Below are positions 2,680 to 17,636 of a DNA stretch of 17,636 nucleotides, one piece after another; within the stretch, counting starts at the first letter, position 1; each line of letters starts with the position of its first letter. The notes under the pieces are model-generated. The model had not been told where the DNA came from, did not search any database, and saw nothing but the letters and a program-made list of their open reading frames with translations. Source of the stretch: Candidatus Fervidifonticultor quintus (lineage in GTDB: Bacteria; Sysuimicrobiota; Sysuimicrobiia; Sysuimicrobiales; Humicultoraceae); NCBI GenBank assembly GCA_031459535.1, contig JAVKIJ010000070.1, forward strand, positions 1-17,636. Reading direction: 5' to 3'. Position numbers and translations under genes: made by a program.

Positions 2680-3654
2680 TCAGAGATCCTGCGCGCTGGC
2701 GGCGGCAGCGATGGTGTTCCGTCCCGAGCGGGCCCGCGCCAGGGCCTCTTCGGCTCGCGCGAGCAGGGTCTGCTCGTCCTCGCCATCCCGCGGATAACAG
2801 GCCAAGCCGATGCTCACGGTCCGCGTGGTCGGGAAGGGGTGATCCGGCAGGACGAACGCCGTGCGCTCGACGACCCCCCGCAGCCGCTCAGCCATGGCGA
2901 TGGCGCCCTCGAGCGAGGTCTCGGGCAAGATGATCCCGAAGCGCCCGCCGCCCAGCGAGGTACGTACGTCCACCTGTCTCATCCACCGCGTCATGATGTC
3001 GACCAGTTGGAGCAGCAGAGCCTGCTGGTCGGCCTCGACGAGCACGTCGTCGAGCTCTTCGCTCTCATCGAGGGCGATCAGCCCGATGGTGCACGTCCTG
3101 CCGAACCGGCGGCTGCGCTGGATCTCGCGATGCACGGCGGCGCCGAAGTAGTTGCTGTTGAACAGGCCCGTGACCGGATCAACCAGGACCTGTCTGCGGG
3201 CCTGTTCGCGCAGGTCGTCGAGTCGCTTCTGGACGGCCAGCGTCCGCCGATCGCGCTGCAGCTCGTGCCGACGGATGGCCTCGAGCACGCCCACGGAGAT
3301 CATGCCGGTCAGGAACGTCCCCACGTCGGGGTCTGCGGTCCCGCCGGAGCCGCCGGTCAACAGGTCCAGGAGCGCCGGCTTGATCTGGAGCAGCACCCGG
3401 ATGACTTCGTCCAGGGGGATCTGGAGGGCGAACGCCTCCTGACTCAGGCGCCCGGCGAAGTCGGCAAAGGCCTCGGGCTGGCCGCTGGCCGTCGCGTGGG
3501 CCAGGGCGTCCACGCCGGCCTGCAGGCGCGGCCCGGTGCGGTCGGCGTCACGCCACAGCGGATGCAGATCGGGGATGTCGGACAGGCGCCGGCCCCACTG
3601 GGCTGCCAGGCGCCGGCGGTGGACGCGGATCTGTTCGACGGTCGAAGACCGCAT
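2680..3654 (-). CDS. Degenerate GGDEF-domain protein with N-terminal helical (RsbRD_N/globin-like) domain
   Basis: DPVTGLFN start of GGDEF fold, RQVD I-site, active site SLGGGRF instead of RYGG[DE]EF, TVSIGLACYP. Start placed at ATG 3654 behind a G-rich SD; the ORF-track GTG at 3711 is less likely. N-domain call is tentative. Confidence 0.8.
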   Translation of the reverse strand: MRSSTVEQIRVHRRRLAAQWGRRLSDIPDLHPLWRDADRTGPRLQAGVDALAHATASGQPEAFADFAGRLSQEAFALQIPLDEVIRVLLQIKPALLDLLTGGSGGTADPDVGTFLTGMISVGVLEAIRRHELQRDRRTLAVQKRLDDLREQARRQVLVDPVTGLFNSNYFGAAVHREIQRSRRFGRTCTIGLIALDESEELDDVLVEADQQALLLQLVDIMTRWMRQVDVRTSLGGGRFGIILPETSLEGAIAMAERLRGVVERTAFVLPDHPFPTTRTVSIGLACYPRDGEDEQTLLARAEEALARARSGRNTIAAAASAQDL

Positions 3655-3770
3655 GACTGCCCCCGCAGTAGCGTTTCTCAGAGTAGTATGCCCATCTCCT
3701 GTCGCGATCACCGCACCACACAGGACGATGGCGGCACCCGGCGAACTGAATAGGCACCCGGTTGACGATC

Positions 3771-4130
3771 ATGAGTGTGAAACTGAAAGGCATACTCCAG
3801 GAACTGGTGGGCGACGATACGCGGGCGGTGGCGCTGTTTGGGGGTGACGGCCAGGTGATCGAGGCCGTCACGAAGAGCGGCCTCCATGACCTTGGGCCGG
3901 TGTCCGCCGATCTGGCCGCCATGCTCAAGGTCGCGGCGTACTGCGCGCGCAAGCTGGACGGCGGCGACCTGGACCACGTGACCATGACCACCGACAACGT
4001 GGCCGTGCTCGCCGTCTCGGTGGGCCCGGCGCACTACCTGGTCACGGTTCTGGACGCCGGCGGCAACCTGGCGCGCGCGCGCGTCCAGATTCGGCGCCGG
4101 AAGGCGGAGATCACCGAGGAGCTCTCATGA
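3771..4130 (+). CDS. Roadblock/LC7 (MglB-like) domain protein
   Basis: About 119 aa with pattern [12 protein letters not shown]...[21 protein letters not shown]...GNLARAR, typical of Roadblock/LC7. Confidence 0.8.
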
Positions 4131-5110
4131 GCGTGCGCGGCTGCGCACTCGCGGCGTCCCTGGTCCTGGCGGTGCTGGCCGGCGGCCGGCCTGCCGCCGC
4201 TTCGCCGCCGACGCTGCGCGATGGCGCTGCGGCCTACTCGCAGGGTCGCCTTGACCGCGCCCGGGCCATCTTCCATCAGGTGGCGGTCACCCGCCCCGGG
4301 GAACATCACGCCTGGTTGTGGCTGGGCGTGGTGGAGTTCCAGAGGAAGGACTATGGGAGGGCCGAGCAGGCGTTCGGTCGCGCGGCGCATCTGGCGCCGC
4401 AGGATGCTTCTGTGCACCTCTGGTGGGGCCACAGCCTCGCAAAGCTCCAGCGACCCGAGGAAGCGGCCCGGGCGTTCGAGCGGGCCCTGCTCGCCCGTGG
4501 CAGTCTGAAAGTGTATGACCTGGCCCAGCAGGCCCTGCGCGCGATGCGGCCGCTGCCCGCTCTGCCAGTCGCGGGGCCGGTCGGTCAGCCGTCCAGGTCT
4601 GGGCCCGCGGCTCCGGCCTGGGTACTGAACCTTGACAGCTACCGCACCCTGGCCAAGCACTACAACTCGTCACTGTCCGTCGTCGAGTCCGATGCCATCG
4701 CCAGGGCGATCCTGGGGTACAGCCGGCACTTCAATCTGGACCCACGGTTGGTGGTGGCGCTGATCGCCGTCGAGTCAGGATTCCAGCCCAGGGCGCTGTC
4801 CCGCGCAGGTGCCATGGGGTTGGGGCAACTGATGCCGGGGACGGCGCGGGCGCTTGGCGTCAATCCGTGGGACCCGGTCCAGAACGTCTACGGCGCCATC
4901 AGGTATCTGCGCGGAAACCTCGACCAGTTTGGATGGGGCAACACGCACCTGGCTCTGGCCGCCTACAACGCGGGGCGCGGGGCGGTCGAGCGGTACGAGG
5001 GCATCCCGCCTTTTGCAGAGACCCAGTGGTATGTGGCCAACGTGACGAGCCTCTATCGCCGGTTGATGGCGATCCGGGGCGAGATGTCGGAACTCCACCG
5101 CCGCCTCTGA
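4127..5110 (+). CDS. Secreted TPR-containing lytic transglycosylase (SLT domain)
   Basis: Signal-peptide-like N-terminus and about 3 TPR-like repeats. SLT motifs VESGF (catalytic Glu), [28 protein letters not shown] overlap with the upstream gene. Confidence 0.88.
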
Positions 5111-7634: not shown

Positions 7635-7660
7635 GTCTAACGCGCGAGCAATCTGGGTAC
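7635..7660 (+). promoter_or_regulatory. Putative autoregulatory SigB/SigF-type promoter GTCTAA-N14-GGGTAC
   Basis: One mismatch per box to the B. subtilis SigB consensus GTTTAA-N12-14-GGGTAT. Lies upstream of the riboswitch and sigma gene. Confidence 0.7.
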
Positions 7661-7753: not shown

Positions 7754-7836
7754 TCCTCGATAAAGGCAAACCCATCGCGAGATGGGGGCGCAAAGCTTCG
7801 GGACCAGGTGTCTGGTTGGCCGGGCTGCCGAAGGGA
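7754..7836 (+). ncRNA. c-di-GMP-I (GEMM-I) riboswitch aptamer
   Basis: CGATAAAGGCAAACCCATC-GCGA-GATGGGGGCGCAAAGC...GGCCGGGCTGCCGAAGGGA. Has GGCAAACC, a GNRA-capped P2, GCAAAGC and 3' GCCGA. The G20-equivalent is G, indicating c-di-GMP rather than 3',3'-cGAMP. Confidence 0.93.
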
Positions 7837-7844
7837 GTGCAGCG

Positions 7845-7883
7845 ATCAGCCTCTTGGGGCAGCCCGAGAGGCTGGTTCGTTTT
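7845..7883 (+). terminator. Riboswitch expression-platform intrinsic terminator
   Basis: 14-bp stem ATCAGCCTCTTGGG / CCCGAGAGGCTGGT (2 G-U pairs), loop GCAG, tail TCGTTTT. Confidence 0.8.
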
Positions 7884-7897
7884 CCTGGGGAGGCGCC

Positions 7898-8722
7898 ATG
7901 GCAGTGCGTGCCGCACACCGACAGGTCGCATCTCGACGCATCACGCATCACACTGCGACGCCGTCTCCCGCGCCGGGCGATGTGGAGATACTCGTGGCGG
8001 AATATCTGCAGACGCCGACCCCGCAGATTCGAGAACGCATCGTGGCGGCCTGCACGCCCCTGGTCCGCCGCATCGCCGGCGAGTTCGTCTTCGCGGGCGT
8101 GCCCTCCGAGGACCTGGTGCAGGTGGGTTACATCGGGCTCCTCAACGCCATCGCGGCGTTCGACCCGGCCAAGGGGGCGAAGTTCTCCACATATGCCAGC
8201 TACCTGATCCGCGGGGAGATCCGTCACTACCTGCGGGACCAACGGGATACGATCCGCAAGCCGCGCTGGCTGCAGCGGCTGAACAGCAGGATCGAGGAGG
8301 CCGTGAGCCGCCACGTGAGCGAGACCGGTCGGTTCCCGGGCCTCGAACACCTCTCGGAGGAGCTGAACATCGAGGAGGACGGTCTGCTGGAGATCCTCCG
8401 GACGCGCGAGGCCCTGCGGACCGTGTCGTTGGAGACCGATGAGGAGAACCCGGAGCTGCGAGTTGACCGTGACCGGATCAGGCATCGCACGCACGTCAGC
8501 TTCCAGTTGCCGATCGAGGACCGCGTGGTCCTGTTGGAGGCCATGGAGTCGCTGAACGCGCTGCAGCGGAAAGTGCTCTACTACATCTTCTACACCGACC
8601 TCACGCAGATGGAAGCGGCAAAGCGCATCGGGATCTCACAGAAGCACGTGTCGCGCGTGCTGGCATCGGCACTGGCCAAGCTCCGGGGGCTGATGGGCGC
8701 GCCATCGCCCGGCGCGATGTAG
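7898..8722 (+). CDS. Group 3 sigma factor, SigB/SigF/SigG family
   Basis: Region 2 EDLVQVGYIGLLNAIAAFDP..G.KFSTYA...IRGEIRHYLRD...IRKPR. Region 4 LTQMEAAKRIGISQKHVSR. SD GGGGAGG precedes ATG 7898. Confidence 0.92.
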   Translation: MAVRAAHRQVASRRITHHTATPSPAPGDVEILVAEYLQTPTPQIRERIVAACTPLVRRIAGEFVFAGVPSEDLVQVGYIGLLNAIAAFDPAKGAKFSTYASYLIRGEIRHYLRDQRDTIRKPRWLQRLNSRIEEAVSRHVSETGRFPGLEHLSEELNIEEDGLLEILRTREALRTVSLETDEENPELRVDRDRIRHRTHVSFQLPIEDRVVLLEAMESLNALQRKVLYYIFYTDLTQMEAAKRIGISQKHVSRVLASALAKLRGLMGAPSPGAM

Positions 8723-8737
8723 ATGGGGGGAGCGGAG

Positions 8738-9094
8738 ATGTCGCAGCTCAAAGACGTGTTGATGGACCTTTCCAAGGTGGAGGGTGTGCTGGCCGCGCTC
8801 GTCGTCGCCCGGGACGGCTTCGTCGTCGAGGGCCTGGCCACCGACGAATCAGTGGACCTGGAGGCCGTCGGCGCCATTGTGGCCAGCAACATCGCGGCGT
8901 CAGACTCCATGGGCCGGGAGATGGCCAGGGGAGGGATGCGCAACATCCTGATCGAGTTCGACGAGGGCCCCGTGGCGATCGGGCCGGCCGGCCCGGACGC
9001 CGTGTTGGTCGTCGTCGGCAGCCGGCAGGCCAACCTGGGCCGCATCCGTCTGGAGATGCGCCGGAACAGCCAGCTGGCCGCCGCGCTGGTCTAG
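8738..9094 (+). CDS. Roadblock/LC7 (MglB-like) domain protein
   Basis: VEGVLAALVVARDGFVV, NILIEFDEG and ANLGRIRLEM are typical Roadblock motifs. SD GGGGAG precedes ATG 8738. Confidence 0.88.
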   Translation: MSQLKDVLMDLSKVEGVLAALVVARDGFVVEGLATDESVDLEAVGAIVASNIAASDSMGREMARGGMRNILIEFDEGPVAIGPAGPDAVLVVVGSRQANLGRIRLEMRRNSQLAAALV

Positions 9095-9104
9095 CGGCCC
9101 GCAG

Positions 9105-9130
9105 GCCTAGAGGCCGATGCTCTTGGGCAT
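9105..9130 (+). promoter_or_regulatory. Putative SigB/SigF-type promoter GCCTAG-N14-GGGCAT for the minor pilin operon
   Basis: GCCTAG at 9105-9110, 14-nt spacer, GGGCAT at 9125-9130. SD at 9141-9147 lies just after the predicted TSS. Confidence 0.65.
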
Positions 9131-9155
9131 AGTCCGGCGAGAGGGGGGCGCTCAC

Positions 9156-9587
9156 GTGGCGGTCATGCCCCGACGGCGGCTGCGAAGGGCAGAAGAGGGG
9201 TTTAGCTTCATCGAACTCCTGGTGGCCCTATCGTTGCTCGCCGGTGTGTCGCTGTTCATCTTTCAGACCTTCATTGCCGGGATGGCCCATGCGGGCCGGG
9301 CGAACGAGCGGGCGGCCGCCACCATGGTCGCCCTGCAGATCATGGAGCAGGTCCGGGCCAGCGTGAACCCATACGAGATGGTGGGCTTCGTGGACCTGCC
9401 GCGGACGGCGCTGCCGCTGCCCGCGCCGTACTCAGGGATCGCCAATCCCACGCCGCACCGGTTCGAGGTGGCGGTGGACGTGACCCGTGACGACAACCTG
9501 ACGCTGACCACGGTGACCGTGCAGGTGTACCGGCCCTCGGACACGACGCCCTTCGTCACGCTGACCACGGTGCTCGATGACCAGTAG
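9156..9587 (+). CDS. Type IV minor pilin, PilV/GspI-like
   Basis: Class III signal: basic leader RRRLRRAEEG|FSFIELLVAL. Start GTG 9156 (or ATG 9165) behind SD GAGGGGG. Confidence 0.85.
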   Translation: MAVMPRRRLRRAEEGFSFIELLVALSLLAGVSLFIFQTFIAGMAHAGRANERAAATMVALQIMEQVRASVNPYEMVGFVDLPRTALPLPAPYSGIANPTPHRFEVAVDVTRDDNLTLTTVTVQVYRPSDTTPFVTLTTVLDDQ

Positions 9588-10158
9588 CCGCCGCGTTGGC
9601 TGGTTGCGGTCGGCCGCGGGCGATGCCCGCGGCGTGACCCTCGTGGAACTGGTGATGGCGCTGGCGCTCCTCAGCCTGGCGCTGGGCAGCATCTATGGAT
9701 TCGTGCTGACGGGTGGGCGATCCGCGCGGGTCACCAACGATCTGCTCCAGACCCAGGCCCAGGTCCGCGCGGCGATGGACAACGTGGTGGACGAGATCCG
9801 CTGGGCGCAGCGGGTGACGGCGGCCAGCGCGGCATCTGTGACGCTGCTCGTCCCCCAGTCCACGCCCTTCTCACCGTCCAGCCCCTACACCGTGACCTTT
9901 GCCTACGATGCCGGGACGCAGACGCTGACCCGGCGCGAGGACCCGGACGCGGACGGTCCTTCCGCCGCGGGTGCACCCGTGGACCTGGCCTATGGGCTCG
10001 CCAGCCTGACATTCGAGTACTTCGACAACAACGGGATCTCGCTGGGCTCGTCGCCGGCCGACCTGGACGCGGTGGCCCGGGTGCGCATGGCGGTCACCGC
10101 CATGCGGGACCAGACGATCCGCTCCTTCGCCGGCGACGCGGCACTGCGGGGCCGGTAG
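9577..10158 (+). CDS. Type IV minor pilin, PilW/GspJ-like
   Basis: ARG|VTLVELVMALALL prepilin motif, followed by a Q.Q.RAAMD.V.DEIR.A helix. Confidence 0.85.
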   Translation: MTSSRRVGWLRSAAGDARGVTLVELVMALALLSLALGSIYGFVLTGGRSARVTNDLLQTQAQVRAAMDNVVDEIRWAQRVTAASAASVTLLVPQSTPFSPSSPYTVTFAYDAGTQTLTRREDPDADGPSAAGAPVDLAYGLASLTFEYFDNNGISLGSSPADLDAVARVRMAVTAMRDQTIRSFAGDAALRGR

Positions 10159-10187
10159 ACGCCCTGGGGTTGGGCCGGAGGGTTGAG

Positions 10188-12218
10188 ATGATGGCACGGC
10201 TGCGTTCCACCAGAGGGTTCGCCCTGGTGTCGGCTCTGCTCGTGATCTTCGTCCTGGTCATCCTCGGCGCGCTCATCCTCTATCTGAGCGGCAAGGAGAT
10301 CGCGCTGAGCGCCACGCGGATGACCGGGGCCCAGGCGCTGAACATTGCCGAGGGCGGCGGCGTGGCCGCCCGTGCCGCGCTCATGGTCCTGATGGGCGCC
10401 AATCCCACCGATGTGGTCTCCGTGGACGCCTCACTGAGCGGAACCACCCTCGCCACCTGGTATGCGGGAGGCGATCCCGCCTCACAGAACCCGCTGCGCC
10501 TGTTCGACTACCTGGTGCTGGACGGCCAGCGTTACACCACCGGCGCCACGTCGGCGACCAGCTCGCTGAGCTTCGAGGTGAACTGGGCGGCCCCGTACAC
10601 GCACCGCAAGCTGCAGCTTGCCACGGGCACGCCGCCGGCGAACTCCCTGGGGACGGGGAGCTACAGGGCGACGCTGGTGGTGAGCCGCCGGCTGGCGCCC
10701 CACCCCACCGACCCCGGGCAGCCGCAGCGCTACATCCAGCAGCTCGGCGTGGACCACTACGAGTTTTACTACACGTACACGGTCACCAGTGACGGCCAGG
10801 TGCCACCGTGGCCGGCACGGCGTCGCGTGACGATGTCCAGAGACTTTAGCGTTCAGATCAAACGGCAGAGCTTCGCGCACTACGCGCTGTTCACCCACGT
10901 CCACACCACCCCCAGCGGCGGCGACATCTGGTTCACCAGCCGCACCAGCTTCGACGGCCCGGTGCACACCAACGGGGAGTTCCGGTTCGCCTTCTTCCCC
11001 AAGTTCGGCACACCCGACAGCGACGGCACCTGTCCGCCGAACAATGCCGCGCCCACCCGGCTGACCAGTGTGAGCCGCTACGCCTGGTTCAACAACAACG
11101 GGAGTCCGCGGCGGCTCCAGGCCAACGAGAACGTGGTCAACGGTGTCCGGCGCGACGCGCCGGTGCTCCCCGACTGCACACCGTCCACCCTCAGCGACGA
11201 CAACGATAACCAGGCCGCCGACTTCACCCGCGGCGCGGCGTCCATCCCGATGCCCAGCAACCCGTATAGCCAGAAGGGCGTCTCCATCGGTCGGGACCCT
11301 GCGGACACCACGGCGGTGACGAATCTACAGATCCGCCAGGCGGTCCCCGAGCTCCCCGACAGCACCAGCACCGTGCCCAACGGCATCTACGTTCCGGTCG
11401 TGGACGCCAACGGCAATGGCATCTCCGATCCCGGCGAGGCCCTGGGCGGCGGCATCTACGTCCAGGGCGACCTGAACGGCATGACCCTCAGCGTGGGCGG
11501 GCCAGGCAACAATCTGGCCATCTACACGCTCGTGCAGGGCTCACAGACGGTCACTGTGACGGTCGACCGCGACGCGCAGACGACCACGGTCACCAACACC
11601 GCGTGGTCTTCTCCGCAGACCCGGATGTTTGCCGGCGTGCCCAAGGGCTGGCAGGGGCCGGGCAACACCAACGCGACCCTCATCTTTGTCCAGGGCAATA
11701 TCAACTCACTGAGCGGGACGCTGGAAGAGAAGGAGCAGACGACCATCGCCGCCTCCGGGCGCATCGACATCACCAACCACCTGCGCTACGAGGTGCCCCC
11801 GATCGTCACCGATCCCAACAGCAACCCGCTCAACGTGCTCGGCCTGTACTCGGCGAACAACGACATCCGCATCTCGGCCTCAGCGCCCAACGACCTGGAG
11901 ATCCACGCCGTGCTGATGGCGGGAAACACCGGCGACGGCGTCAATAGCTCGGTGAACGTCCAGAACTACGATACGGGCTCCCCGCGCGGGACGCTGCGGT
12001 TGATCGGCGGGGTCATCGAGGAGTACTACGGCGCCTTCGGCACCTTTGACCCGAATACCGGGAACCCACAGACAGGGTACGGCCGGGACTTCCGCTACGA
12101 CCGCCGCATGAGCCGCGGGTTCACGCCGCCATACTTCCCCACCACGCCGCTGTTCGAAATCACCCAGGTACAGGGCCTGGCCGGCGCGCGGCCGGTCTGG
12201 CGCGAGGCGGCGCCGTGA
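10188..12218 (+). CDS. Large PilX/GspK-position pilin-like protein (DUF4900/ComZ-like tip protein)
   Basis: RG|FALVSALL (no Glu5, as in PilX) and ALNIAEGG helix. FDGPVHTNG, beta-rich N/T/G body, C-terminal GYGRDFRYDRRM..PPYFP. Confidence 0.8.
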   Translation: MMARLRSTRGFALVSALLVIFVLVILGALILYLSGKEIALSATRMTGAQALNIAEGGGVAARAALMVLMGANPTDVVSVDASLSGTTLATWYAGGDPASQNPLRLFDYLVLDGQRYTTGATSATSSLSFEVNWAAPYTHRKLQLATGTPPANSLGTGSYRATLVVSRRLAPHPTDPGQPQRYIQQLGVDHYEFYYTYTVTSDGQVPPWPARRRVTMSRDFSVQIKRQSFAHYALFTHVHTTPSGGDIWFTSRTSFDGPVHTNGEFRFAFFPKFGTPDSDGTCPPNNAAPTRLTSVSRYAWFNNNGSPRRLQANENVVNGVRRDAPVLPDCTPSTLSDDNDNQAADFTRGAASIPMPSNPYSQKGVSIGRDPADTTAVTNLQIRQAVPELPDSTSTVPNGIYVPVVDANGNGISDPGEALGGGIYVQGDLNGMTLSVGGPGNNLAIYTLVQGSQTVTVTVDRDAQTTTVTNTAWSSPQTRMFAGVPKGWQGPGNTNATLIFVQGNINSLSGTLEEKEQTTIAASGRIDITNHLRYEVPPIVTDPNSNPLNVLGLYSANNDIRISASAPNDLEIHAVLMAGNTGDGVNSSVNVQNYDTGSPRGTLRLIGGVIEEYYGAFGTFDPNTGNPQTGYGRDFRYDRRMSRGFTPPYFPTTPLFEITQVQGLAGARPVWREAAP

Positions 12219-12649
12219 GCCGCAGATCCCGCGCTGCTGCGACCGCGGGCTTCAGCCTCCTCGAGGTCGCGGTCGTCGCGGCGCTGGTGGGGGTCGTCCT
12301 GGCGCTGGCGTTGACGGGCTGGCGGGGATATTCGGCCCAGCAGCGGCTGCGCTACGGCACCGCGCAGGTGGCCACTGACCTTCGGCAGGCGCAGGAGCGG
12401 GCCAAGGCCGAGCGGGTCGTCTACACAGTGACGTTTGTCGCGTCGTCGCCCAACTACACGATCGCCCGCAGCGGAGGCGGGTTCCTGGAGAACGCCACCC
12501 TGCCGGAAGGTGTCACGTCAACCGCCAGCGTCACCGTGACGTTCTCGGCCTTCGGCAGGCCGGATGCGGCCCACACGATCACCGTCCAGAGCTCAGCGGG
12601 AACGGGAGTGGTGACCGTGACCGAACTGGGCGGCATCTCTTACCAGTAG
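12215..12649 (+). CDS. Type IV minor pilin, FimT/GspH-like
   Basis: AG|FSLLEVAVV, DLRQAQERA, VTFSAFGRP and VTVTELG fit the FimT/GspH pattern. GTGA overlap with the upstream stop. Confidence 0.85.
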   Translation: MSRRSRAAATAGFSLLEVAVVAALVGVVLALALTGWRGYSAQQRLRYGTAQVATDLRQAQERAKAERVVYTVTFVASSPNYTIARSGGGFLENATLPEGVTSTASVTVTFSAFGRPDAAHTITVQSSAGTGVVTVTELGGISYQ

Positions 12650-12650
12650 G

Positions 12651-14870
12651 CTACTCCTGCACGTAGACCACCCGCAGGATCTCATCAATCGTGGAGATGC
12701 CCGACATGACCTTCTCGAGGCCGTCGTCCCGCAACGTGCGCATGCCTTCCCGGATGGCCTGGGCCTTGATCTCTGCCGCGGGCGCGCGGTGCACGATCAT
12801 GTCCCGGATCGCGTCGCTCACCACCATCAGCTCGAAGATGCCGATCCGTCCCCGGTAGCCGGTACCCCGGCAGTAGTCGCAGCCGGTGCCACGGTAGAAC
12901 TCCACGCTGGCGTCCGCCTCGATGTTGACGCCCAGCCGGCGCAGCGCGTCGGCCGGCGGGACGTAGGCGACCTTGCACTTGGTGCAGATGGCCCGGGCCA
13001 GGCGCTGCGCCAGGACGGCGATGACCGAGGAGCTGATCAGGAATGGTTCGACACCCATGTCGGTCAACCGGGTGATGGCGCCGGCCGAGTCATTGGTGTG
13101 CAGCGTGGACAGCACCAGGTGCCCAGTCAGGGCGGCCTGAATGGCGATCTCCGCGGTCTCCCGGTCGCGGATCTCTCCCACCATGACGATGTCGGGGTCC
13201 TGCCGGAGGATGCTGCGCAGACCGTTGGCAAAGGTGAGGCCGGCCTTGGGGTTGACCTGGACCTGGTTGATGCGGGGGATCTGGTACTCCACCGGGTCCT
13301 CGACGGTCACGATGTTGCGGTCGAGGGTGTTGAGCTTGCCCAGCGTGGCGTACAGCGTAGTGGTCTTGCCGCTCCCGGTGGGGCCGGTCACCAGGACCAT
13401 TCCGTGTGGCTTGCTCACCGCGCTCTCCCACAGGTGGAGGACCTCGGTGGGGAACCCCAGGCGGGTGAGGCCCAACTGGGTGGAGGACTGGTCGAGGACC
13501 CGCAGCACGACCTTCTCGCCGAACATGGTCGGCAGGGTGGAGACGCGCAGGTCAATGTTGCGGCTGTCGGCGGTCAGGTGGATGCGACCGTCCTGGGGCC
13601 GTCGCCGCTCGGCGATGTCCAGGTCGGCCATGATCTTGATCCGCGACGTGAGCGCCGCCTTGAGGTTGGCGGGCGGGTTCATCACGTCGCGCAGCACGCC
13701 ATCCACCCGATAGCGGATGAACAACCCGTTGCGGTGCGGCTCGATGTGGATGTCGCTGGCGCTCTGCTTCACCGCCTCGTCCACGATGAGGTTGACGAGC
13801 TTGACGACCGGCGCCTCCTCGGTGAGCGCCTTCAGCTTCTCGACCGACTCGTCTTCTTCGCCGGTCTCCAGCGCGTACTCGGTGATCGACTCGCGCATCA
13901 CGCGATCGATGAGGCTGTCGGCGATCTGGTAGACGCTGGCCAGGGCGTTGGCGATGTCTTCCTCGGTGGCGATCACCAGGTCCACTTCCATCCCGGTGAT
14001 CAATCGCACGTCGTCGATCGCGAGCACGTTGAGCGGGTCGGCGACGGCCAGCACCAGCCGGCCGCCCCGCCGCTCCAGCGCGATGCACTTGTGCCGGACC
14101 GCCAGCGCGTGCGGGATCAGCTTGGCGGTCTCCTCGTCAATCTTGGTGTTGGCCAGGGCCACGTACGGGTAGCCCCACTGCGCGGCCATGGCGCGGGCCA
14201 GATCCTGGTCGCTGACGGCGCCGGTGTCACGCAGGATCTTGCCGAGCCGCTCGCCCGTCCGGTCCTGGATCTCCTGGGCGTGTTTGAGCTGCTGCTCGGT
14301 GACCACCCCTAGCTCGAGGAGGATCTGACCGAGCCTCTCGGCCCGGACGGCCTTGACGCCGACCTTCGTCCGGCCGCCCTTGGCCGGCGTGGGCTTCTCG
14401 GCGGCGCGATGGCTGCTCTTCTCCGCGGCGCGCGGGGCGGGCTTCCCAGCCGCCGGGGCCGGCGCGGGCGGCGGAGGTTCCACCGTGGGCGCGATGGGGG
14501 CATCGACATTCAGCCTGGCCTGGATCACCGGGTCGTTGGGCGAGGCCGCTACGGCCTGCTGGTAGGCCTTCAGCACCCAATCGGTCTCGCCGCGGGCGAG
14601 ATGCTTGTCTGCAGCCGTCAAGTAGGCCGCCGCCGCGTCGTGCGGCGCGTCCAGCGCCCGATACACCTCCGCGAGGTCCCGGTACACCCAGGGCTCGTCG
14701 GGATCCAAGGACGCCAGGCGCAGGTAGGCTTCCTGCGCTTCCGACCAGCGCCGGGCCCGCGCCAGCGTGCGCGCCTCGGCGTAGGCGAATGCGCGGTCGA
14801 GGGTCGGGCAGTCCGCCGCAATCCCGGCTGCCGCTTTGAGCGTCTGGAGCGTGCCGTCGCCGTGCGCCAT
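12651..14870 (-). CDS. pilB: Type IV pilus assembly ATPase PilB/GspE with N-terminal TPR and MshEN domains
   Basis: Walker A GPTGSGKTT, TVEDPVE, LRQDPDIVMVGEIRD, TGHLVLSTLHTN, Zn cysteines CTKC/CDYC, MshEN RLGQILLELG...Q...RLGKIL. Start at the second ATG (14870) gives proper spacing to SD GAGAGG. Confidence 0.93.
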   Translation of the reverse strand: MAHGDGTLQTLKAAAGIAADCPTLDRAFAYAEARTLARARRWSEAQEAYLRLASLDPDEPWVYRDLAEVYRALDAPHDAAAAYLTAADKHLARGETDWVLKAYQQAVAASPNDPVIQARLNVDAPIAPTVEPPPPAPAPAAGKPAPRAAEKSSHRAAEKPTPAKGGRTKVGVKAVRAERLGQILLELGVVTEQQLKHAQEIQDRTGERLGKILRDTGAVSDQDLARAMAAQWGYPYVALANTKIDEETAKLIPHALAVRHKCIALERRGGRLVLAVADPLNVLAIDDVRLITGMEVDLVIATEEDIANALASVYQIADSLIDRVMRESITEYALETGEEDESVEKLKALTEEAPVVKLVNLIVDEAVKQSASDIHIEPHRNGLFIRYRVDGVLRDVMNPPANLKAALTSRIKIMADLDIAERRRPQDGRIHLTADSRNIDLRVSTLPTMFGEKVVLRVLDQSSTQLGLTRLGFPTEVLHLWESAVSKPHGMVLVTGPTGSGKTTTLYATLGKLNTLDRNIVTVEDPVEYQIPRINQVQVNPKAGLTFANGLRSILRQDPDIVMVGEIRDRETAEIAIQAALTGHLVLSTLHTNDSAGAITRLTDMGVEPFLISSSVIAVLAQRLARAICTKCKVAYVPPADALRRLGVNIEADASVEFYRGTGCDYCRGTGYRGRIGIFELMVVSDAIRDMIVHRAPAAEIKAQAIREGMRTLRDDGLEKVMSGISTIDEILRVVYVQE

Positions 14871-14919
14871 CCACATCCTCTCGACAGCAGGAAGAGGGCT
14901 GCGGGGTCTGCCCCTTCGG

Positions 14920-14945
14920 GACTAGTCCCAAGATCTTCTGGGCAT
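14920..14945 (+). promoter_or_regulatory. Putative SigB/SigF-type promoter GACTAG-N14-GGGCAT for the dnaB-like operon
   Basis: GACTAG at 14920-14925, 14-nt spacer, GGGCAT at 14940-14945. Confidence 0.65.
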
Positions 14946-14953
14946 ATTCCTAG

Positions 14954-14979
14954 GTGCCCATCTGAAGATTGCCTTAGAC
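14954..14979 (-). promoter_or_regulatory. Putative SigB/SigF-type promoter GTCTAA-N14-GGGCAC for pilB
   Basis: Minus strand GTCTAA at 14979-14974, 14-nt spacer, GGGCAC at 14959-14954. Confidence 0.65.
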
Positions 14980-15092: not shown

Positions 15093-16664
15093 GTGGAGAT
15101 TTACCAGATAGAGACACGGGTACTCAGCGGCTTGATGCGCGACCGCCATCTGTACACGCTGGCGGCGTCCGACGGATTTCACGTGGACCTGCTGTCGTCG
15201 CCCCAGGGCCGTCGGCTGGCGAAGGCCATCATCGAGATCTACAACACGCCTGCCGTGGTGCTGGACGAGGCCTCGGTCAGGGCATTCCTGACCGAACACG
15301 GGCTGTTGAACCCCGAGATGGAGCGCTACCTGGCGTCGGTGCTCGTGATCCCGCCGCCCAGTGCCGGCGACCTGATGGCCCACGTGGAGCTGTTGAAGGC
15401 GCGCGAGAGCCGGGAGCTGCTCGCCCAGGTCCACGAGAGCATCGGCAACTACCTGTACCGACACGATCGGTCGCAGGCGGACATCGTGGAGTTCACCACC
15501 GACGCCATCCACCGGCTGCTGGAGATCCAGCGTCGCCGCGTGCGCCGCCAGGTCGCTCCGATCTCCGAAGCCTTTGGGCCGCTGTTGGCCCACGCGGTCC
15601 CGAGGCCGGCAGATGGGATCCTGGGGTACTCGATCAGCCCCTTCAACCGGCTGAACGCGTTGCTCTCCGGGCTCCGGCGGGGCTTCTACTACGGCCTGGC
15701 CGGCGCGCCCAGGCGTGGCAAGACCAACTTCGCCCTGGACCTGGCCACGTTCGTGGCCACCAACCACCGCATCCCGGTCCTCTACTACACCTGGGAGCAG
15801 ACCCGGCGCGTGCTGGCCGCCCGCCTGATCGCCAAGGAGACCGGCGTCAACCCCACGGCGATCCTGATGGGCGCCGACGCCAACGGCGAGATTGCCAGCC
15901 GGATCGCCAGCGCCAAGGAGGCCCTGGCTCGCTTCGGGCCCTACCTGCACCTGGTGGAAGCCGGCCGCCGCGAGACGCTGGATCGCATCCGGGCGCACGC
16001 CCACAACCTGATGCAGGAGTTCCAGACGCAAGAGATCGCCATCTTCTTCGACTACCTGCAGAAGATCCCGCTCGCCGACCAGATCGAGGACTGGAAGGCT
16101 CGGACCGACCGAATCTCCACGGCGCTGGCCGAGCTGAGCCTTGAGCTGAACTGCCCGATCTTCGCCATCTCACCGCTGGACAAAGAAGGGTGCCGGCTCG
16201 ATGAGCGGCCGCTGGAGGACGCGGACGTCTTCAACCCCTATAACCGGCCCACCATGCACCACAGCATGGGCAGCGGCGACCTGGAGTACGACCTGGACGT
16301 GGCCATGGTGCTGGCCAAAGACTGGAAGGCGACCCACGACCTCCGGCAGCTCGTCGAGACCCGGGCCAAGGCCGAGGGGATCGACACCGACGACCTGCCC
16401 ACCATCGACATCATGAACCTCTATGTGGACAAGAACCGGGACGCGCCCGAATCGGAGTCCAACATCGTGCAGTACGCGTTCTTCGTGACGTTGAACCGGT
16501 TCCTCGAACTCGACTACAAGACCGAGGCCGAGTACCGGCCCGAGTTCCAGGGCTTTGCCAAGCTCCAGGAAATCTACACGTTCCTGCGCGAGCACGGATT
16601 CGGACCCCAGCGCGACCTGGTCGCGACCTCCAGGACCACAACGAACGGAGGGGGAGCGCGATGA
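15093..16664 (+). CDS. Divergent DnaB-like (SF4) helicase/ATPase paralog
   Basis: DnaB_N-like N-terminus. Walker A GAPRRGKT, YYTWEQ (H1a), IFFDYLQ (Walker B), ELNCPIFAISPL (H3), RPTMHHSMGSGDLEYDLD (H4), KNRD arginine finger. Confidence 0.85.
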   Translation: MEIYQIETRVLSGLMRDRHLYTLAASDGFHVDLLSSPQGRRLAKAIIEIYNTPAVVLDEASVRAFLTEHGLLNPEMERYLASVLVIPPPSAGDLMAHVELLKARESRELLAQVHESIGNYLYRHDRSQADIVEFTTDAIHRLLEIQRRRVRRQVAPISEAFGPLLAHAVPRPADGILGYSISPFNRLNALLSGLRRGFYYGLAGAPRRGKTNFALDLATFVATNHRIPVLYYTWEQTRRVLAARLIAKETGVNPTAILMGADANGEIASRIASAKEALARFGPYLHLVEAGRRETLDRIRAHAHNLMQEFQTQEIAIFFDYLQKIPLADQIEDWKARTDRISTALAELSLELNCPIFAISPLDKEGCRLDERPLEDADVFNPYNRPTMHHSMGSGDLEYDLDVAMVLAKDWKATHDLRQLVETRAKAEGIDTDDLPTIDIMNLYVDKNRDAPESESNIVQYAFFVTLNRFLELDYKTEAEYRPEFQGFAKLQEIYTFLREHGFGPQRDLVATSRTTTNGGGAR

Positions 16665-16942
16665 TTGTGGACAGGCGAGCGCCAATCTATCCTATCAGGA
16701 CGGTGGCGCACCTCACGGGCGTGAATCCGCGGCGCATCCGCGCCTGGGAGGACCAGTACAACCTGCTGACCCCGGCGCGCACGGGCGGCGGACACCGCCT
16801 CTACAGCGAAGAGGATGTGGAACGCATCCGATGGGTGAAGGCCATGGTGGATCGCGGCATGAGCCTCAAGGGCATCCAACGGCTGTTAGAGACCCCCCGC
16901 GAGTCGGAGCTGGCGGCCGAAGTCCGGGGAGGCAGGCGATGA
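16661..16942 (+). CDS. Short MerR-family HTH regulator (DNA-binding domain only)
   Basis: YPIRTVAHLTGVNPRRIRAWE..Y.LL.PARTGGGHRLYSEEDV. 93 aa; ATGA overlaps with both neighbours. Confidence 0.9.
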   Translation: MIVDRRAPIYPIRTVAHLTGVNPRRIRAWEDQYNLLTPARTGGGHRLYSEEDVERIRWVKAMVDRGMSLKGIQRLLETPRESELAAEVRGGRR

Positions 16943-17181
16943 AGGTTGAGCTCGACCGTGAACATGTCGTCCTGTTCACCCAGCTCAACCGCGTCGAGGG
17001 CGAGGTGCATCTGCCATCGACCGCACGGCTGTCCGACCGGCTGAACGCCGCCAAGGACTTCGTGCCCATCACCTCCGCGCGGGTGTTCTCGCTGGACGGC
17101 AATCTCATGTACACCAGCGACGTGGTCCTGGTGCACAAGGCCCACATTGTGATGATCATGGAGCGCCATGAAACCGCCTAG
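16939..17181 (+). CDS. Small conserved-looking hypothetical protein (DUF6812-like), 80 aa
   Basis: ATGA coupling and SD GGGGAGG. Pattern RVEGEVHLP..RLSD.LN...FVPIT.A.V...V.K..IV; family name recalled from memory, unverified. Confidence 0.65.
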   Translation: MKVELDREHVVLFTQLNRVEGEVHLPSTARLSDRLNAAKDFVPITSARVFSLDGNLMYTSDVVLVHKAHIVMIMERHETA

Positions 17182-17636
17182 GAGCCTCACGCGGCGCCGC
17201 ATCCCCCTGGGTGAGCTGCTGGTCGAAGCCGGCCTCATCACCAGGCAGCAGCTCGACCAAGCCCTGCAGTCCCAGCGCGTGACCGGCCACCGACTGGGGA
17301 GGGTCCTGGTCTCGATGGGCCTGGCGACCCCTGAAGCCATCGCCAGGGCTGTCGCGGGTCAACTCGGCATCGAGTTCGTGGAGCTGCAGGCGATCACCAT
17401 ACCGGATGACGTCCTCACCGTACTGCCCGAGACCCTGATCCGGCGGCACCAGGTCATTCCCATCCGCAACGAGGGTGAGGCCCTGGTGCTGGGCATGGTG
17501 GACCCGCTGGACATCCTGGCGCTGGACGACATCCGTCGCTTCCTGAACCGCGACCTCATCCCCGCTGCCATCACCCTCGAGGGCTTCCAGGACGCCGTCA
17601 ACCGCTACCCGGCCCTGGCCAGCTCCATTGACAAGG
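17168..17636 (+). CDS. Second MshEN-domain PilB/GspE-like protein, 3'-truncated by window edge (absent from ORF track)
   Basis: Manual translation: MKPPRSLTRRRIPLGELLVEAGLITRQQLDQALQSQRVTGHRLGRVLVSMGLAT...LVLGMVDPLDILALDDIRR. Clearly paralogous to the N-terminal domain of the pilB in this window. The ATPase domain is not visible. Confidence 0.85.
   Translation, partial: MKPPRSLTRRRIPLGELLVEAGLITRQQLDQALQSQRVTGHRLGRVLVSMGLATPEAIARAVAGQLGIEFVELQAITIPDDVLTVLPETLIRRHQVIPIRNEGEALVLGMVDPLDILALDDIRRFLNRDLIPAAITLEGFQDAVNRYPALASSIDK

Follow-up and report, generated by a model that had tools for sequence, protein, structure and literature searches.

What is a second DnaB doing at the head of an operon of type IV pilus motor genes? 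The question is raised by a 17,636-nucleotide stretch of DNA from the uncultured hot-spring bacterium Candidatus Fervidifonticultor quintus (phylum Sysuimicrobiota; assembly GCA_031459535.1), called the window below, which is the entire 17.6-kb contig JAVKIJ010000070.1 of a 3.1-Mb metagenome-assembled genome (MAG; G000) that is 88.9% complete. It carries the following gene:

15093-16664, + strand: dnaBL, encoding the DnaB-like paralogue DnaBL (523 amino acids, GTG start; N-terminal domain, linker and RecA-like C-terminal domain)

Within the DnaB family (helicase superfamily 4, SF4), DnaBL belongs to an old clade of its own and is not a replicative helicase; we tentatively suggest that it may serve the pilus motor as an accessory ring. 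Full-text literature searches turned up nothing that connects a DnaB paralogue with type IV pili, and a term search of the main text of the paper describing the phylum (PMC11604079) found mention of neither pili nor DnaB.

Fold, motifs and inheritance of DnaBL

The start of dnaBL follows a G-rich, Shine-Dalgarno-like stretch and sits at a position common to its orthologues. Residues 183-456 of the protein match Pfam DnaB_C (PF03796) at 89 bits against a gathering cut-off of 27, which places it in SF4; the equivalog model for replicative DnaB (TIGR00665) returns 117.1 bits, far from its cut-off of 385.25. The AlphaFold2 model, computed from an alignment of 77 sequences (predicted local distance difference test 91.2), has the two-domain DnaB fold of N-terminal domain, linker and RecA-like C-terminal domain. 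Foldseek TM scores against full-length Escherichia coli and Vibrio cholerae DnaB are 0.75-0.80 on target length, and VIA gives Z 28.8 for the C-terminal domain of E. coli DnaB, 27.4 for Aquifex DnaB and 13.7-14.1 between N-terminal domains. After DnaB, the VIA ranking continues with T4 gp41, RadA, Twinkle, T7 gp4, KaiC (20) and FlaH/ArlH (17.4-17.6), while the Z of 10.3 for PilT (2eyu) reflects the common P-loop arrangement only. Likeness of the model to the KaiC/ArlH fold, at Z 17-20, is at superfamily level only. A TIGR00416 (RadA/Sms) search of the same genome listed contigs C59, C71 and C49 and not DnaBL, in which Pfam also finds no Lon-like domain.

The alignment columns of 30 members of the DnaBL family and 46 ordinary DnaB-like sequences were compared one by one, which allowed us to separate what has been kept from what has been rebuilt. 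The ATPase set is retained in 30/30 members and consists of the Walker A GKT (G209 and K210; T211 in 29/30), the catalytic E235, D320-Y-x-Q323, K447 and the finger residue R449. Since all catalytic and trans-acting residues are kept, DnaBL is most likely still a DnaB-type ring that hydrolyses nucleoside triphosphate (NTP). The H3 and H4 motifs, on the other hand, no longer have the canonical form of a replicative DnaB. In H3, SQLxR has become S[PS]LDK, with the Gln position occupied by Pro (20/30), Ser (8/30) or Val (2/30) in the family and by Gln (34/46) or Ser (11/46) in ordinary sequences, and with Lys in all 30 members where all 46 ordinary sequences have Arg. The H4 DNA-loop motif SDLRESG reads HH[SC]xGSG in the family: the Arg or Lys of 46/46 ordinary sequences is lost in 30/30 to Val, Met or Thr, the Glu or Asp of 45/46 is Gly in 30/30, and a new His pair is present (H389 in 26/30, H390 in 27/30). 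C367 is likewise conserved in 29 of the 30. Because the family-specific residues are themselves conserved, DnaBL appears to be under selection rather than decaying. Relative to DnaB it has insertions at 373-384, 422-435 and 455-457, the first two acidic, and a C-terminal extension (488-523) that forms a helix in the model. An earlier note, made from the letters of this stretch alone, had described a full DnaB architecture with an intact ATPase core, hallmark substitutions (SQL to SPL, and loss of Arg and Glu from the single-stranded DNA loop) and acidic insertions; the 523-residue frame, the model and the alignment bear out each of these.

The note had also asked for a canonical dnaB elsewhere in the genome, and one is present on contig C51 (L001 1471-4308, - strand), above the TIGR00665 cut-off at 529.4 bits. 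Because this intein-bearing canonical gene lies on another contig, DnaBL is a second copy and not the replicative helicase. The canonical protein is a 945-residue frame with N and C domains, in which DnaB_C is divided into three pieces by two intein-splicing stretches, the first of them in the P-loop.

We surveyed 94 genomes of the phylum, 54 of high quality and two flagged as unpublished. DnaBL orthologues (49-79% identity) were found in 72 of the 94 and in 43 of the 54, with one locus per genome (in two genomes, as fragments on two contigs). The named relatives are Sysuimicrobiota/CSP1-3 MAGs, often filed under Armatimonadota. When every protein of a library of 50%-identity representatives was scanned, only 27 reached E <=1e-30; beyond them the scores drop from 327 bits to about 110 bits, the level of a generic DnaB. 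A tree of 74 rows (the window, 44 of 80 genome loci, 8 representatives and 21 ordinary DnaBs, with other loci omitted as short or near-duplicate) places the family in a starred (well-supported) clade on a long stem, apart from the ordinary DnaBs, and joins the Sysuimicrobiota sequences in one clade with support 92. Further members come from Acidobacteriota, Desulfomonilaceae, unnamed lineages and single MAGs labelled Limnocylindrales and Eisenbacteria. To judge from the sequences, dnaBL is a vertically inherited core gene across four families of the phylum and is not mobile. Members of the family occur widely among uncultured phyla of soils and hot springs, and no function has been described for them.

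The pilus locus, its reach and its promoter motifs

Family labels (f1, f3, f4 and f5, where f5-type means Sysuimicrobiaceae-type) and genus labels (g21, g25) are used below for groups within the phylum. The genes and motifs immediately around dnaBL are:

12651-14876, - strand: PilB1, 741 amino acids, with N-terminal tetratricopeptide repeats (TPR), MshEN and T2SSE ATPase; divergent from dnaBL; TIGR02538 692.5 bits (cut-off 675.65)
14920-14945, + strand: SigB/F-type promoter-like motif GACTAG-N14-GGGCAT, about 150 nt upstream of dnaBL, conserved at orthologous f1 loci
14954-14979, - strand: motif of the same type, GTCTAA-N14-GGGCAC, pointing to pilB1
16661-16942, + strand: short MerR/HspR-like helix-turn-helix protein, 93 amino acids, its start overlapping the dnaBL stop
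16939-17181, + strand: DUF6812 protein, 80 amino acids, its start overlapping the merR stop
17168-17636, + strand: PilB2 N-terminus with an MshE-type motif binding cyclic di-GMP (c-di-GMP) and an MshEN domain, cut by the contig end

The stop/start coupling that the earlier note had described can be read directly as ATGA at 16661-16664 (dnaBL/merR), ATGA at 16939-16942 (merR/DUF6812) and a 14-nt overlap at 17168-17181 (DUF6812/pilB2). In congeners, pilB2 is followed by pilT and pilC. The N-terminal extension of PilB1, about 180 residues with TPR ahead of MshEN, cannot be aligned in some of the f4 genomes, nor in g21, a genus without dnaBL.

Synteny was sampled at 20 of the 72 loci, picked for long contigs, and PilB or PilT genes adjoin dnaBL at 16 of the 20, in three gene orders. 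These are pilT<pilB2<DUF6812<merR<dnaBL / pilB1> in f1 (8/8 loci), sigma-merR-Robl-Robl-pilB1-dnaBL-pilB2-pilT in f4 (four of five sampled loci; Robl, Roadblock) and pilT<dnaBL / pilB1> in f5 (4 loci). At the fifth f4 locus (G071), dnaBL stands amid pilin-like genes, PilD and PilM. Co-location and co-orientation with pilB/pilT are therefore conserved in f1, f4 and f5, and not in f3 or in other phyla. Among 80 named genome loci, a PilB-family gene is present at 37 of the 38 with at least 55% identity.

Two further subclades were gained by scanning metagenomes with the most distant members as seeds. In one, a clade fused to a zinc ribbon (read from the alignment only), a cluster of minor-pilin or prepilin-like genes lies 2.5-6 kb from the gene in 8/10 loci, the two exceptions being without downstream sequence, and PilB stands at about 9 kb in 2 loci. 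Its members (L143-L161, metagenome contigs) have an N-terminal CxxC...CxxC followed by a long Pro/Gln-rich linker, and the gene is flanked by a bamA-skp-lpx cluster on one side and by a conserved TPR-like lipoprotein of about 590 amino acids on the other. The N-terminal extensions of two distant members contain no Pfam domain. In the third clade, to which the label 'linked' applies more loosely, the neighbours are ComFB (3 loci), STAS, HD-GYP, a PilQ-type secretin (1 locus) and ComEA (1 locus). ComFB is a receptor of cyclic dinucleotides (c-di-NMP) tied to pili, motility and competence, according to two reports (PMC12448109; bioRxiv 10.1101/2023.11.27.568819). A tree of 52 rows (quick search, LG+G4) requires 5 changes of the linked state, at least 3 of them forced by starred branches, and has that state on both sides of the deepest split of the family. 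Three subclades, separate from one another, have pilus or competence genes near dnaBL; the others have no such link.

The pilus cluster also extends to the far side of pilB1, where the window holds:

7635-7660, + strand: motif of the same type, GTCTAA-N14-GGGTAC, upstream of the sigma gene
7756-7833, + strand: c-di-GMP-I-GGC riboswitch aptamer (68.7 bits, gathering score 59) in the sigma-gene leader, overlapping the listed GTG start
7808-8722, + strand: SigB/F/G-type sigma factor, its true start probably downstream of the riboswitch
8723-9094, + strand: Roadblock/LC7 (MglB-like) protein, by domain match
9117-12649, + strand: four pseudopilin/minor-pilin-like genes (N_methyl, DUF4900/PilX-like and GspH-like by Pfam)

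Flanking the pilus module are a GGDEF diguanylate cyclase (2680-3711, - strand), which adds to the c-di-GMP theme of the locus, a TPR and lytic-transglycosylase protein (4127-5110, + strand) and the end of mltG (1-480, + strand). A second c-di-GMP-I-GGC riboswitch (69.1 bits) is found on contig C51 of the same genome (L136 1390-1477, - strand), after the same promoter-like motif and before a 709-residue secreted protein. One metatranscriptome run, in which 31% of sampled words were found, gave contigs over all 30 bins of the window at a low, even depth compatible with DNA carry-over; one such contig covers 13861-15032.

The promoter-like motifs are consistent in type, and their genomic statistics set bounds on what they mean. 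The sites before dnaBL, pilB1 and the sigma gene make up 3 of the 9 matches to G[AT]CTA[AG]-N14-GGG[CT]A[CT] in the 3.1-Mb genome, a pattern derived from two of these three sites. This pattern, a loose one, is not enriched across the genome (its 9 matches compare with 25 for a reversed control), and only the clustering on this contig stands out. The earlier note's pilus sigma motif is partly confirmed. In f3, where the gene is unlinked, GTCTA-N14-16-GGGCAT precedes dnaBL in 11/16 loci, and in 3/3 genomes one of only 4-7 genomic matches to the strict pattern falls just upstream of the gene. These totals are close to the 1-4 of reversed-pattern controls, and none of six other f3 sites precedes a gene resembling the pilus, sigma or Roadblock proteins of the window; on both counts a shared regulon in f3 is not supported. 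In f5-type loci the element is of another kind: a sigma-54 -24/-12 element (TGGAAC-N5-TTGC) stands 53-89 nt upstream of the dnaBL-pilT operon in 12/12 (L081-L085, L088, L111, L196, L198, L204, L205 and L209), accounting for 12 of the 16 matches in the 453 kb searched. Because dnaBL stands consistently behind alternative-sigma-type motifs in f1, f3 and f5, its placement fits a conditional rather than a housekeeping function.

Possible roles of DnaBL

There are several possible explanations for these observations. The one that we favour, tentatively and with somewhat less than even confidence, is that DnaBL is a ring NTPase that assists or regulates the pilus motor, by analogy with ArlH. The protein would be co-produced with the pilus motor ATPases from the operon dnaBL-merR-DUF6812-pilB2(-pilT-pilC), divergent from pilB1, with one SigB/F-like promoter type predicted upstream of the operon, of pilB1 and of the sigma gene of the cluster, the last with its c-di-GMP-type riboswitch leader. 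It would assemble into a hexamer, hydrolyse NTP and contact PilB or PilT at the cytoplasmic base of the pilus machine, its ring and NTPase activity retained and its central-channel (H4) loop and H3 motif rebuilt. It would be neither a replication helicase nor an obligatory part of ComEC-dependent DNA uptake. A bolder generalisation, which we regard as doubtful, is that the motors of bacterial type IV pili may include, as a third NTPase ring, a descendant of the replicative helicase DnaB; by docking on PilB/PilT or gating them it would be a bacterial counterpart of archaeal ArlH.

A number of observations weigh against an accessory role at the motor. The nearest solved structures are all nucleic-acid motors (in VIA, DnaB at Z 27-29, gp41 at 25.3, RadA at 23.6 and Twinkle at 23.2), and DnaBL has no match to PF06745, the KaiC/ArlH family, at E <=0.01; three distant family members reach 16-21 bits, below the cut-off of 26.6. 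Other SF4 helicases contact DNA through different loops, so loss of the DnaB-type Arg is not proof of lost DNA binding. The three sampled f3 loci have housekeeping neighbours only and no pilus link (0/3), and a PilB-family gene is found at 0 of 17 genome loci with 49-54% identity (f3-type) and at 0 of 25 below 49% (Acidobacteriota, Desulfomonilaceae and others), or 0 of 42 below 55%. Neighbours at the unlinked loci are instead a YfcE-like phosphoesterase (12 loci), a small SMC/ABC-like ATPase (9 loci) or genes with a MutS domain (MutS_V). Lastly, a T2SSE-pilT-sigma-merR-pilB-pilC cluster persists in genera g21 and g25, which have neither dnaBL nor Roadblock there; dnaBL is therefore dispensable for that cluster, an accessory and not a core part of the pilus. 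As a separate observation on the unlinked loci, in the Acidobacteriota-type ones (L112-L124) the gene immediately downstream of dnaBL encodes the YfcE-like metallophosphoesterase, which in f3 (L090-L102) is found a few genes away and is possibly an older partner of DnaBL.

The strongest competing hypothesis, in our view rather unlikely, is that DnaBL is a translocase or helicase acting on single-stranded DNA imported through the pilus or competence machinery, or in the ensuing recombination, as an analogue of RadA, ComM or ComFA. The predicted DnaB ring-helicase fold with an apparently live ATPase site would suit such a task, and RadA of Streptococcus pneumoniae is structurally close to the model (Z 23.6, root-mean-square deviation 2.2 over 207 residues). 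RadA carries a zinc ribbon, as one DnaBL clade does with its N-terminal CxxC...CxxC, and ComFB, the PilQ-type secretin and ComEA adjoin the gene in distant subclades, although ComFB, according to PMC12448109, belongs as much to pili and motility as to DNA uptake. The genome itself has DprA and RadA; ComEC and ComEA were not found in this incomplete bin, and ComEC is present in 5/5 congeners. The genome, however, already has a RadA (594 bits), the DNA-contacting Arg and Glu of DnaB are lost in all 30 family members, and comEC, dprA and recA are never beside dnaBL in the loci examined. There is also the distribution of ComEC (PF03772), which occurs in 30/33 f1, 18/22 f3 and 12/12 f5 genomes and in 0/23 f4 genomes (G057-G079, versus 62/71 of the other genomes searched); in 5/5 high-quality f4 genomes TIGR00361 gives matches below 20 bits, none over the cut-off. 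The pattern suggests that the whole family has lost the channel for DNA uptake and still retains type IV pilus ATPases, and dnaBL is kept in 12 of the 23 f4 genomes. Because f4 keeps the pilus-linked gene without ComEC, dnaBL follows the pilus motor and not the route of DNA uptake.

The unlinked loci and the dnaBL-less g21 cluster would be accounted for if DnaBL were a general DNA-repair or housekeeping ATPase with no direct pilus role, its position being a matter of chance in the lineage, through gene order or shared regulation. Co-occurrence is of no help here: PilB-family genes are present in 92/94 genomes and so cannot discriminate between the readings. We consider this reading unlikely, as pilus or competence neighbours appear in three subclades on both sides of the deepest split, adjacency to PilB/PilT survives three rearrangements within Sysuimicrobiota, the gene is coupled by stop/start overlaps to merR, DUF6812 and pilB2, and alternative-sigma-type promoter motifs precede it in f1, f3 and f5. 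Far less probable still is that a prophage, or a pilus-bearing integrative conjugative element (ICE) like SPI-7 or PAPI-1, uses DnaBL as its replicative helicase. SPI-7-type islands do combine DnaB with a type IV pilus, PHROG 19 (DnaB-like replicative helicase) matches DnaBL at 133.7 bits, and its language-model look-alikes are phage DnaB clusters (score 0.98, a lead only, as it comes without alignment or E-value). The island and phage models nevertheless fall far below their cut-offs (NF040583, 71 bits versus 655; TIGR03600, 99.3 versus 498.65), the gene is single-copy and vertically inherited across four families, and its flanking genes are housekeeping or pilus genes. A scan of IMG/VR found no family member, only 4 loci, all at 23-27% identity. 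The earlier note had seen no replication or phage genes nearby; no match to replication, integrase or phage structural families was obtained among the window's open reading frames scanned (Pfam, NCBIfam, PHROGs), and PHROGs identified no integrase, relaxase, phage structural or ICE gene among 19 of these frames. A mobile-element origin is largely refuted by the low model scores, the vertical core inheritance and the absence from IMG/VR.

An accessory role at the pilus motor is the reading that we favour. The earlier note's 'repurposed SF4 ring ATPase' coupled to the pilus stands for this lineage, because the canonical dnaB is elsewhere and the close homologues are chromosomal (and single-copy, not prophage or ICE helicases); the link is not family-wide, nor is the gene essential to the cluster. 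As for the two functions that the note had offered, processing of imported DNA is weakened by f4, which lacks ComEC, and the non-DNA role is tentatively favoured. New here are the f4 gene without ComEC, the pilus cluster without the gene in one genus, and the alternative-sigma-type (SigB/F-like or sigma-54-like) promoter motifs.

Comparison with known systems

DnaB is the textbook replication motor, and a conserved, catalytically intact copy that has left replication for a pilus motor operon would, if the accessory role is true, put an SF4 ring to a new use and add a new component or regulator to type IV pili, which serve motility, adhesion and DNA uptake. The presence of DnaBL in the operon suggests that a motor of the helicase type has a pilus-linked task not yet described, for which the ComEC-less lineages that keep the pilus-linked gene, the genus with the cluster and without the gene, and the rebuilt channel loop provide experimental handles.

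With replicative DnaB (TIGR00665; 7t22, 9dls, 4nmn), DnaBL shares the two-domain fold, Walker A, the catalytic Glu, DYxQ and the KxR finger. It differs in falling below the family cut-off, in its rebuilt H3 and H4, its three insertions and its C-terminal helix, and in being a second copy placed behind alternative-sigma-type motifs inside a pilus operon. Against the model for the DnaB of SPI-7-type islands (NF040583) it scores 71 bits versus a cut-off of 655, and it is a vertically inherited core gene with no island features. RadA/Sms (S. pneumoniae, 8rxc) is a non-replicative DnaB relative linked to transformation that has the same RecA-like core and KNR-type motif, whereas DnaBL has the DnaB N-terminal domain and no Lon-like domain.

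A functional parallel may be ArlH (FlaH), a RecA-superfamily ATP-binding protein that, according to bioRxiv 10.1101/2021.03.19.436134, is encoded with the PilB-family ArlI of the archaellum and acts on it. ArlH/FlaH structures match the C-terminal domain of DnaBL at Z 17.4-17.6. ArlH, of the KaiC branch, is a single domain of about 230 residues, whereas in DnaBL the entire DnaB architecture is present, N-terminal collar included, together with a complete Walker B and an Arg finger.

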